Notes under the pieces: model-generated | What the model was told of the DNA's origin: nothing | Databases searched by the model: none | The model's input: only the letters and a program-made list of their open reading frames with translations | Assembly (NCBI GenBank): GCA_040954595.2 | Contig: CM082577.2 | Coordinates: 3,057,703-3,121,702, forward strand | DNA length: 64,000 nucleotides | DNA from: Balanoglossus misakiensis | Lineage: Eukaryota > Animalia > Hemichordata | Direction of reading: 5' to 3' | Shown: in pieces, positions 73 to 63,969 of the stretch | Layout: each line of letters begins with the position of its first letter | Numbering within the stretch: position 1 is the first letter of the stretch | Translations under genes and position numbers: made by a program

Positions 73-3000
73 CTGCAGGGAAAAACAAAGTTTATTTTCA
101 GTGTACATGTATGTGTGTGTAATGTACAATGTATGTGGTGTATGTACCAGAAAACATTAAAATTGTATATATACATACATGTCAATGAGTGAATGCACTT
201 ATTAAATACAATGTACATGTACATGAATATTTATGTTCAGATGGGCAGTAACGACCATACATATATCTTATGCCTGACATCAGAGAGTCAAGAAATAAAC
301 CAAATAATGAAAATTGACTTACGAATAGTACAAGACACTCCAGTGAAGCATGATGAGCAGGAACACTGGTACTGAGTACAGACACCAGGGAACGGCATGA
401 AACATGTGCCACCGTTCTGGCATGGAGATGATGCACATGCATCCACAGCTATAAACACAAAATTGAAATTACCAACTTCATTTTGATGATATAATGTAGG
501 TGGTGATACTATTGTAAAATTCCTAAAAGCAACTGAAAGTATAAAATTTCAAATCTTATCTTCAGAAGCATTTGGTTAGTACGCCAGTGTTTGACTGTAC
601 ATACGTGTTTGGCAGACGCTGCCAGTCCAACACTGGCCACAGATACAGCTGTACTCTGTACAAGAACCGGACACGGCTTGACAGAATCCTCCGTTCTGAC
701 ATGGACGGCTGGAACATGGATTCACAGCTGAAATAAACATAAGACAGGCCATGAAAAAAATTAGAATAGTCCGTGGCTGTCGGAAGCAATTGAGGTTACT
801 GATTTTCATATGAGATTTATGTGATTTACTGATTATAGTAATAATGCAGTGATTTGGCATTGAATGTTGATTGTATCAAAATGTCCACTCTATAGGGAAT
901 ATTTCACCATTTGTCTTACTTTGTATACAATTTGCTCCTGTGAAACAAGGCTGACACCTGCAAGTATATTCAGTGCAGGACGATGATGATGGTATACACT
1001 CTCCATTGTTTGCACACGGGTTGTTTGGTACGCATGGGTTGATCGCTGCAGATTGAGAGGAAAAAAGGAGAATAATGTATCAGGTTTGGTGCCTTTATCA
1101 TTTCAGATTTAGCAGTTAAAAAAACAAAAACATTTCAGTAAATTTTCCAAAATTGTTAATATGCAAATAAATTTGCTGAAAATGGTTAATTTTCTTGAGT
1201 AGCTTGCAGCTTAAGAAATCCATTTGGCCTGAAGTACTCGAGCATAAAAATCAATATTTATTTCTTATTTATGTTTTCACACGTTTTCATAATAAGAACA
1301 AAAATAGGCTGTAAGGGAAAAAATCTTGTTTGTCCTTACGGTCTGAGCACGAAATCCCGGAGAAGCAGCCAGCACACCGACACTGGTAGAAAGTACAGAT
1401 GCCAGGGAAAGTTGTACAAGTTGCACCATTTTGACACGGGCTACTGTCACATGGATTGACAGCTGTAAGAAAGATTAAAACAAAATTATATCACCACCTG
1501 AAAAGTGACATATGACCATCTGGCTGCCACTGTGAGCGACATGTTGTCAGCAAAAGAAATGGATCTTCGAGCACTGCACATTTGCTGCATTAAATAGGAA
1601 AGCTGGGTGTAGACCATAGAGTACACAGATAAGTAATGCCAAACTTTTCAGGCCTTCAACAACGGCAAACTGGTTTTATTCCACCGACATAGCTCACTTA
1701 CGTATAGTGCAGAACTCTCCTTGCCAACAGGTGGGACAGTTACACTGGACCTGTGTACAGGAGTCACCCACTGGCTGGCATAAACCACCATTCTCACACG
1801 GAGCGCTGGCACACGCATTGATGGCTACAGAAGAAAATATGCACGGTCAAAATTTCTGCCTTATTATCCACGTTCTGTCACCTCCCCCCTAATCCCACGT
1901 GAGCGGTTCTGACTTATCAAGAAAGGACCATGGTGTGGTCTGAACTACTATGATGGTATAGGGGTGGTTACAACGAGTGAATGTTTTTCGAGGACTTCTT
2001 GACAGTGTTTTATAACTCCGGAACTTTCAAAGAATTTCTACAAGAATGAAAGTGGAGAAGTTGTCTACTTACCATTCTCACAGAAGTCCCCGGAGTAACA
2101 GTCAGCACAGTCACATTCGTACGCATCACATTGCCCATCTGCTGGGAATATCTGTCGGCATGTACCGGAGTTGAGACATGGGGAACTGGAACACGGGTCG
2201 ACAGCTGAAATGGAACAGGAAAAGGATTTGCAAAAAAATGTGTTGATACATACTGTAAAACGGGAATTTTTCGCGACAGGAAATTTTCGCTATATGAACA
2301 GAGGAGACTTTTCCATGATGATTAATTTTCGTGTTGTTTTTGTTCTCGCTCGCAAAGTTCGTCAGATTTGTGCAAACCAAACTTAGTTGTCCAGTATGTT
2401 ACACTGGAAAATAGATCCATGAAGAATGAAATATGAATACAACATTACAGAAATCTGTCTCATATTTCATATAACACGATGACTTACGCTCACTGCAGTC
2501 AGCGCCGATGAAACAGGCAGTACACGCACAGTTGTATTCAGAACAACCAGCACCGGGCGAACAGAATCCACCGTTCCTGCATGGGTTTTGTGGGCCTGTA
2601 CACACATTTACGCCTGTTGGAAAAACGGTAAATAGGTAGTCAAGTTCTCATCAGATTCACATGATCGGCAAAAAAATGTGGGGTGGGGGGGAATGGTAGC
2701 TTTTGAAAATGGATAATATCTTCGTAAATAGCAAATGTGAAATTTAACCTGGCTTGTACATTTGAAATTATGTACATTTTGTATGTCATGTTTAAAACAC
2801 TTACGCTCAACACAGTTTGGCCCAGTCCAACAGTTCTCGTCACAGAGACACATGAATTCGTCACAGGAGTTAGCCAGCGGCTGGCAAATACCATTATTCT
2901 GGCAAGGATTTGGTTCGCACGGGTCTGGATCTGAAAAGAAATTACGCATGATTGGGTGATTTCCAAAGGGACTGAGCAGCTGTATTAATCTTCTGATATT

Positions 3001-63969: not shown

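Follow-up and report, generated by a model that had tools for sequence, protein, structure and literature searches.

Why should every module of a very long EGF array carry two cysteines beyond the canonical six? Tandem EGF rods such as those of Notch and fibrillin are normally stiffened by calcium, and the disulfides of their modules stay internal. The array that raises this question lies in a 64,000-nucleotide stretch of the genome of the hemichordate Balanoglossus misakiensis (GenBank assembly GCA_040954595.2, contig CM082577.2, positions 3,057,703 to 3,121,702), hereafter referred to as the window.

Six-frame translation of the window yields no long open reading frame, and the pattern C-x4-C-x-C-x2-C-[YFW]-x-G-x2-C is found 156 times in the minus frames and never in the plus frames. 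When AG-exon-GT units were parsed in phase 1, 163 clusters emerged, one of which (35365-35472) was discarded as an exon for its five Cys and poor splice score. The result is a giant minus-strand gene with 162 phase-1 exons, 161 introns and 164 complete EGF modules, with exactly the limits (323 to 63969) and module count given in a preliminary description of this DNA, which left the strand unstated. The principal features are:

323..63969, minus strand: internal part of the giant gene, 164 eight-cysteine EGF modules, from exon parsing
63847..63969, minus strand: 5'-most exon inside the window, encoding module 1 with 8 Cys and matching module 4 of protein P0079 (Ptychodera flava) best
62174..62407, minus strand: double exon for modules 5-6 with 16 Cys in all; their native junction is intron-free
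23629..23754, minus strand: the sole exon with a GC donor
10026..10268, minus strand: second double exon, 16 Cys
323..448, minus strand: last complete exon, module 164, 8 Cys
1..72, minus strand: 165th module, incomplete at the window edge, Ca (defined below) already present

Joined together, the exons form a 6,683-residue frame with zero stops and 1,312 Cys (164 x 8). Acceptors are AG in 162/162 cases and donors GT in all but the one GC exon; the introns range from 108 to 1,127 bp, with a median of 248. Both ends of the gene are outside the window, and the array continues past its edge, since the incomplete module at 1-72 already has Ca. The two-module exons probably arose through intron loss. 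Separately, we note that the double exon at 10026-10268 matches a block whose other copies are intron-split. Four-module runs recur near modules 114-118, 125-129 and 135-138; the best run scores 9.7, a value that 100 shuffles do not reach (highest 8.7), so that blocks of modules seem to have been duplicated.

The modules are on average 49% identical and at most 80%, so that the array is not a collapsed repeat; together with a read depth that is flat outside the intronic repeats, this rules out an assembly artefact. Two runs of a single sample, possibly the one from which this DNA was taken, supply contigs for every bin of 20000-29000; no RNA data set was listed for that interval, which says nothing about expression. 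Eighteen of the 40 variants listed (among 158) are exonic; 14 of these are synonymous, compared with an expectation of 21% (p = 4e-7), and none of the four that change a residue hits a Cys. Purifying selection thus acts on the array. A pseudogene is ruled out by this synonymous bias and by the stop-free frame, and the giant gene, judged from its sequence, looks functional. Intronic frames of 90 or more residues, considered as bacterial-type ORFs, look like noise. The introns themselves contain two kinds of repeats:

27610-27706: an element of ~95 bp whose two ends carry TTAA, with inverted termini; copies at 9907-9997, 10310-10403, 14986-15079, 5184-5280, 41466-41559 and 31473-31546
29280-29362, 47921-48031 and 15738-15850: ordinary microsatellites (ATTGT, TCAT and AATG)

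The first of these, which resembles a piggyBac-type MITE, is seen at a read depth thousands of times background.

All 164 complete modules contain eight Cys. We refer to the extra Cys in the C3-C4 hairpin as Ca and to that in the C5-C6 loop as Cb. Ca is located exactly four residues ahead of C4 in 164/164 modules, with a variable loop on its N-terminal side (C3-Ca spacing 3 to 9, equal to 6 in 114 of the 164), and Cb takes the place of the conserved Gly ahead of the packing aromatic. On each of these points the preliminary description is borne out. Spacing is otherwise nearly invariant: one residue separates C4 from C5 and five separate Cb from C6 in every module, the linker from C6 to the next C1 is six residues at 163/163 junctions, the C5-Cb spacing is 2 in 158 modules and 3 in the remaining 6, and the residue following Cb is Tyr, Phe or Trp in 162/164. 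Much length variation is confined to the loops preceding C2 and preceding Ca. With six canonical Cys, C4-x-C5 and an eight-residue C5-C6 loop, the modules are EGF-like domains (PF00008) of the hEGF type, and PF00008 matches 76 of 80 window modules at E<=1, mostly near or under its gathering score.

Calcium-binding EGF (cbEGF) modules carry the consensus D/N-x-D/N-E/Q preceding C1 and an Asp or Asn two residues after C3. All four positions of this consensus are present together in none of 163 window modules; D/N occurs at -4 in one module and at C3+2 in five, and the cbEGF family PF07645 gives a weak match in 2 of 80 modules. The array was previously proposed to be calcium independent, and the never-complete consensus suggests that this is so. 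The composition of the array is also distinctive. Only 2 Lys and 9 His occur among its 6,683 residues, and N-glycosylation sequons (N-x-S/T) number 0 against 28.5 expected from column shuffles, none of 1,000 of which was as low; low Lys and the absence of sequons are common to 15 of the 17 related arrays described below. There are 46 O-fucose-type and 22 O-glucose-type consensus sites in the array.

The two extra Cys map onto a known interface. In Notch, Tyr of EGF11 packs against Ile and Gly of EGF12, and three domains span 100 Å (PMC3415683); the positions of Ca and Cb coincide with this published packing site (PMC4826273, PMC3415683). Comparison of four Notch proteins places the packing Ile of EGF12 at C4-5, the Ca position, and 74.5% of 8,875 six-Cys modules have Gly at C5+3, the Cb position. 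The C3-C4 loop of the window modules is mostly 11 residues long versus 8 in a typical cbEGF, and the geometry of Notch can therefore be carried over only in approximation. At 3.3 nm per module, 164 modules give an estimated length of ~0.55 micrometre.

A single-sequence AlphaFold2 model of a window double exon was poor (pLDDT 49.9). For a related array from Lytechinus pictus, rather than for the window modules, a model built with 14 sequences reached a pLDDT of 88.5 but a pTM of only 0.40. The modeled Lytechinus array matches Notch EGF structures best; its first three modules superimpose on the rod-shaped Notch1 EGF11-13 (2vj3) with a Z of 10.2 and an rmsd of 2.6 Å over 116 residues, and its individual modules are predicted to fit Notch, factor VII and COX EGFs to ~1 Å each, as expected of an EGF fold.

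Relatives were collected with a profile made from 80 of the 160 single-module exons and run against 1.84 billion representatives. The best 150 matches of this search were listed; among the 157 proteins then collected, six carried full eight-Cys modules (Ptychodera, Glandiceps, Holothuria, Amphiura and Lytechinus). Two further searches (best 120 matches listed from each) brought the total to 354 proteins, with proteins of 2,000-2,899 or >9,225 residues covered by the representative search only. Among these matches, the eight-Cys module occurs in 36 of 354 proteins, all named as echinoderm or hemichordate and bearing automatic names such as hyalin-like, mucin-like or Notch-like, and the longest related array has eight modules. 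A word-indexed search with the double exon returned nine proteins, none with eight-Cys modules, and an ESM Atlas search with residues 113-398 of P0079 returned generic EGF clusters only.

P0079, from Ptychodera flava, aligns collinearly with window modules 1-6 (0/200 shuffles reach the score); the next best of the 17 arrays has an uncorrected p of 0.015. Its sequence runs from a hydrophobic N-terminal stretch through a module with Cb only and seven eight-Cys modules to a stalk rich in Thr and Ser and, after this, a transmembrane-like stretch. In Pfam it matches EGF families only, which identifies its Notch-like name as automatic annotation. Notch, Delta, Crumbs and fibropellin proteins carry LNR and ankyrin, DSL, LamG or CUB domains next to their EGFs; the window, an internal part of the gene, carries EGF exons only. 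Among the proteins collected, those of acorn worms stand nearest to the array. We infer that the window gene is an ortholog or close paralog of P0079 and that it starts about three modules past the right edge of the window. In a second Ptychodera flava protein, P0124, an FN3 domain, an eight-module stapled array and a transmembrane-like stretch precede the start of a DEG/ENaC (ASC) channel domain at residues 556-637. It recalls the 'EGF plus ASC domain' EGAS channels of C. elegans (PMC10424705); P0124 could be a genuine fusion that tethers a channel, or else a chimera created by the gene model.

If the extra Cys of one module pairs with that of the next, the terminal modules of an array should each have one extra Cys instead of two, and a bond from Cb of module n to Ca of module n+1 predicts a first module with Cb only and a last module with Ca only; reverse pairing would give the opposite polarity. 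The window has neither gene end, and this prediction was therefore evaluated in the relatives. Forty parsed arrays from echinoderms and hemichordates were reduced to 19 at <80% identity and to 17 after two parser-split proteins had been rejoined. The first module has Cb only in 17/17, all 69 inner modules have eight Cys (with Ca three residues ahead of C4 in two), the last module has Ca only in 16/17, and the total is 8n-2 Cys in those 16 arrays. The seven-Cys caps anticipated in the preliminary description are thus present at every first module and at all last modules except that of P0079, whose array ends on an eight-Cys module followed by a lone Cys six residues past the last C6, for an even count. 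The 17 arrays do not count as independent, since 14 of them are cassettes from echinoderms, for the most part in HYR proteins, with a probable common ancestor. The telling point is that different phyla, and arrays of anything from 2 to 8 modules, have retained the cap asymmetry.

Junction statistics were compiled in an automated table of 331 proteins and 8,959 modules, from which 23 duplicate proteins were left out and in which a few mis-parses remain. Cb in one module and Ca in the next occur together 94 times, with 7 and 9 discordant cases. The corresponding values are 73 (34 and 39 discordant) for Ca and Cb of the same module and 54 (46 and 30 discordant) for reverse pairing. Outside the family, 23 rows with Cb were reduced to 17 true Cb modules once six mis-parses had been dropped. 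Nine of the 17 are directly followed by a seven-Cys module whose hairpin Cys lies three residues ahead of C4; these pairs occur in Seison (P0011, P0023), Brachionus (P0246) and an unnamed protein (P0133). In four bdelloid orthologs from Rotaria and Adineta (P0247, P0259, P0260, P0261), the Cb module precedes one with an extra Cys beside C1. An adjacent partner is absent for the last four Cb modules, found in the urchin orthologs P0263 and P0265 and twice in Lamellibrachia P0188, and some hairpin-Cys modules in this set come after a module without Cb. In the Rotaria/Adineta proteins and Brachionus P0246, other odd-Cys neighbors include hairpin-Cys modules that come after an extra Cys located at C5+2 or within the linker. 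Such neighbors may represent further kinds of junction staple.

These data bear unequally on the ways in which the extra Cys could be used. Pairing of Ca with Cb as a fourth disulfide within one module, as drawn for laminin LE domains, would suit the even count of eight in every window module, and LE domains are described as internally paired (PMC11260871) and LDLR modules as holding their disulfides intradomain (PMC4500599). With this arrangement, two thiols would stay unpaired in 16 of the 17 arrays, one at either end, as would one in each module of the nine isolated pairs; the caps largely refute it, and we regard it as very unlikely. It would moreover have to connect residues that we take, from established EGF topology, to point to opposite ends of the fold. 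Scarcely credible, at the bottom of our ranking, are free thiols or metal ligands in which C5-x-x-Cb acts like a CxxC motif in redox curing or metal binding: this would accommodate the four Cb modules without an obvious partner, as well as weak, sub-threshold metallothionein matches in 2 of 80 modules, and would leave unexplained why the caps are complementary and why Cb modules lie strictly next to Ca modules.

Two other arrangements retain a bond across the junction. Cap stoichiometry would be the same if Cb of module n bonded Ca of module n+1 in a neighboring chain to build covalent fibers or a coat, and the EGF-repeat scallop adhesive Sbp9 forms redox-driven intermolecular disulfides according to PMC13348336. 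We consider this inter-chain ladder unlikely, given that the cis partner already lies at the known packing site (PMC4826273, PMC3415683) and that both the isolated two-module pairs in ordinary EGF arrays and the membrane-type proteins of 4 to 8 modules are better suited to closure in cis. The cap counts are equally blind to which Cys crosses the junction: Cb could take a partner in its own module, either C5 (as a CxxC) or C6, leaving C6 or C5 to bond Ca of the next module, and the integrin EGF bond described in PMC12383024 does use a crossing Cys at the C-terminal end of the preceding module. Such rewiring seems to us distinctly improbable, as the canonical C5-C6 bond would have to break, the spacing that varies is C5-Cb (2 or 3), with Cb-C6 and the aromatic-x-Gly motif constant, and the Lytechinus model is predicted to retain the canonical EGF fold.

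We therefore favor, and regard as probable, a bond from Cb of module n to Ca of module n+1 that closes each junction within the chain and replaces the calcium clamp. The cap polarity in relatives supports the link between successive modules that was originally suggested; the exact bond partners, the single chain and the rigidity are inferred. By this mechanism, every module would retain the canonical 1-3, 2-4 and 5-6 disulfides, the fourth bond would connect Cb, beside the packing aromatic of the C5-C6 loop, to Ca in the next hairpin, and the staple would assume the role of the calcium clamp of cbEGF pairs. Calcium-independent and likely extracellular, the locked chain would be a rod at least ~0.55 micrometre long. 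The inter-EGF disulfide of integrin beta3 crosses a flexible hinge (PMC12383024), which counts against equating a staple with rigidity. In simulations of octovafibrin, the minor sheet yields first under load (PMC10336842), and Cb is situated in the loop of that sheet.

Apart from the internal junctions of the double exons, each staple would span an intron, and every inner module would be both plug and socket, encoded by an exon with symmetric phase 1. Duplication or skipping of such an exon would leave no thiol unpaired, which would explain both the retention of the two Cys in 164 modules and the growth of the array. A role of the protein as a spacer or tether anchored in the membrane is evenly balanced in our estimation; this suggestion is made by analogy with its collinear relative P0079, in which a signal-like stretch and a cap with Cb only are combined with a transmembrane-like stretch. 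We lean somewhat toward the broader view of a self-locking EGF family that is ancient in echinoderms and hemichordates, begins and ends in dedicated seven-Cys caps, is paralleled by the rotifer and Seison pairs, and in this case forms a covalently continuous, calcium-free rod of more than 164 modules and at least half a micrometre, with a length that duplicating or skipping exons could tune. If the junctions are indeed stapled, nature has here a blueprint for protein rods that are stiff without calcium. A lone Cys gain is harmful in NOTCH3 or fibrillin disease, and the stapled family would show how such a change can be fixed once a partner arises next door. It also raises the question of how a chain of >1,300 Cys folds with disulfides across exon junctions.

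The module itself appears to be new. Neither a solved structure with an eight-Cys module nor a dedicated Pfam family was found, Pfam giving generic EGF matches only; the closest solved structures are Notch, DLL and coagulation EGFs, with six Cys in those shown in alignments. Literature on cysteine variants of EGF modules, on the packing of domains and on the EGF proteins of ambulacrarians, as surveyed outside most subscription papers, contained no description of it. Within that survey the pattern did not prove to be an already described family; its novelty is somewhat reduced relative to the preliminary description, as inter-module EGF disulfides are known at other positions. Wouters et al. 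(2005) reportedly regarded the fourth disulfide of the EGF domains in laminin and integrins as an inter-domain bond.

In laminin LE domains the extra Cys pair is C-terminal to the EGF core and adds a loop; CED-1/MEGF10 carry LE-like repeats. LE domains share eight Cys and a rod-like spacer role (PMC11260871) with the window modules, but their extra pair, in the C-terminal loop, is described as internally paired, whereas the window modules have theirs in the C3-C4 and C5-C6 loops, and Laminin_EGF matches none of 80 window modules or 14 arrays. The I-EGF modules of integrin beta are likewise tandem EGF-type modules with eight Cys, paired 1-5, 2-4, 3-6 and 7-8 with one bond spanning the EGF1-EGF2 loop (PMC12383024). 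Their crossing Cys is at the module boundary and pairs with a hairpin Cys in the 1-5 bond, in four modules with a flexible hinge, whereas Cb is within the C5-C6 loop; 163 window linkers contain no Cys and no I-EGF Pfam match was obtained. The distinction from LE and I-EGF placements drawn in the preliminary description therefore holds. In teneurin-type EGFs, modules with an odd number of Cys pair between chains as dimers. All window modules have an even number, and EGF_TEN falls under its cut-off in the arrays for which scores were shown.

Octovafibrin (29 EGF) and scallop Sbp9 (49 EGF) are further proteins with long EGF arrays, which bear load or serve in adhesion (PMC10336842, PMC13348336); their repeats have six conserved Cys, and the accessible parts of these papers describe no built-in junction bond. 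The same module as in the window is found in the B-X(n)-A cassettes of echinoderm HYR proteins and of the hemichordate membrane proteins P0079, P0124 and P0113, which comprise 4 to 8 modules among the matches listed versus at least 164 in the window. Notch-type (hEGF) rods, represented by Notch1 EGF11-13 (2vj3, 4cud; Drosophila 7alj), are the closest matches of the window modules in sequence and fold and share with them the C1-C6 scaffold, the six-residue C6-C1 linker and the packing aromatic after C5. They have six Cys and a calcium clamp, whereas the window modules have two extra Cys at the packing interface; the stapled family thus appears to have exchanged the clamp for a covalent bond at the same interface.
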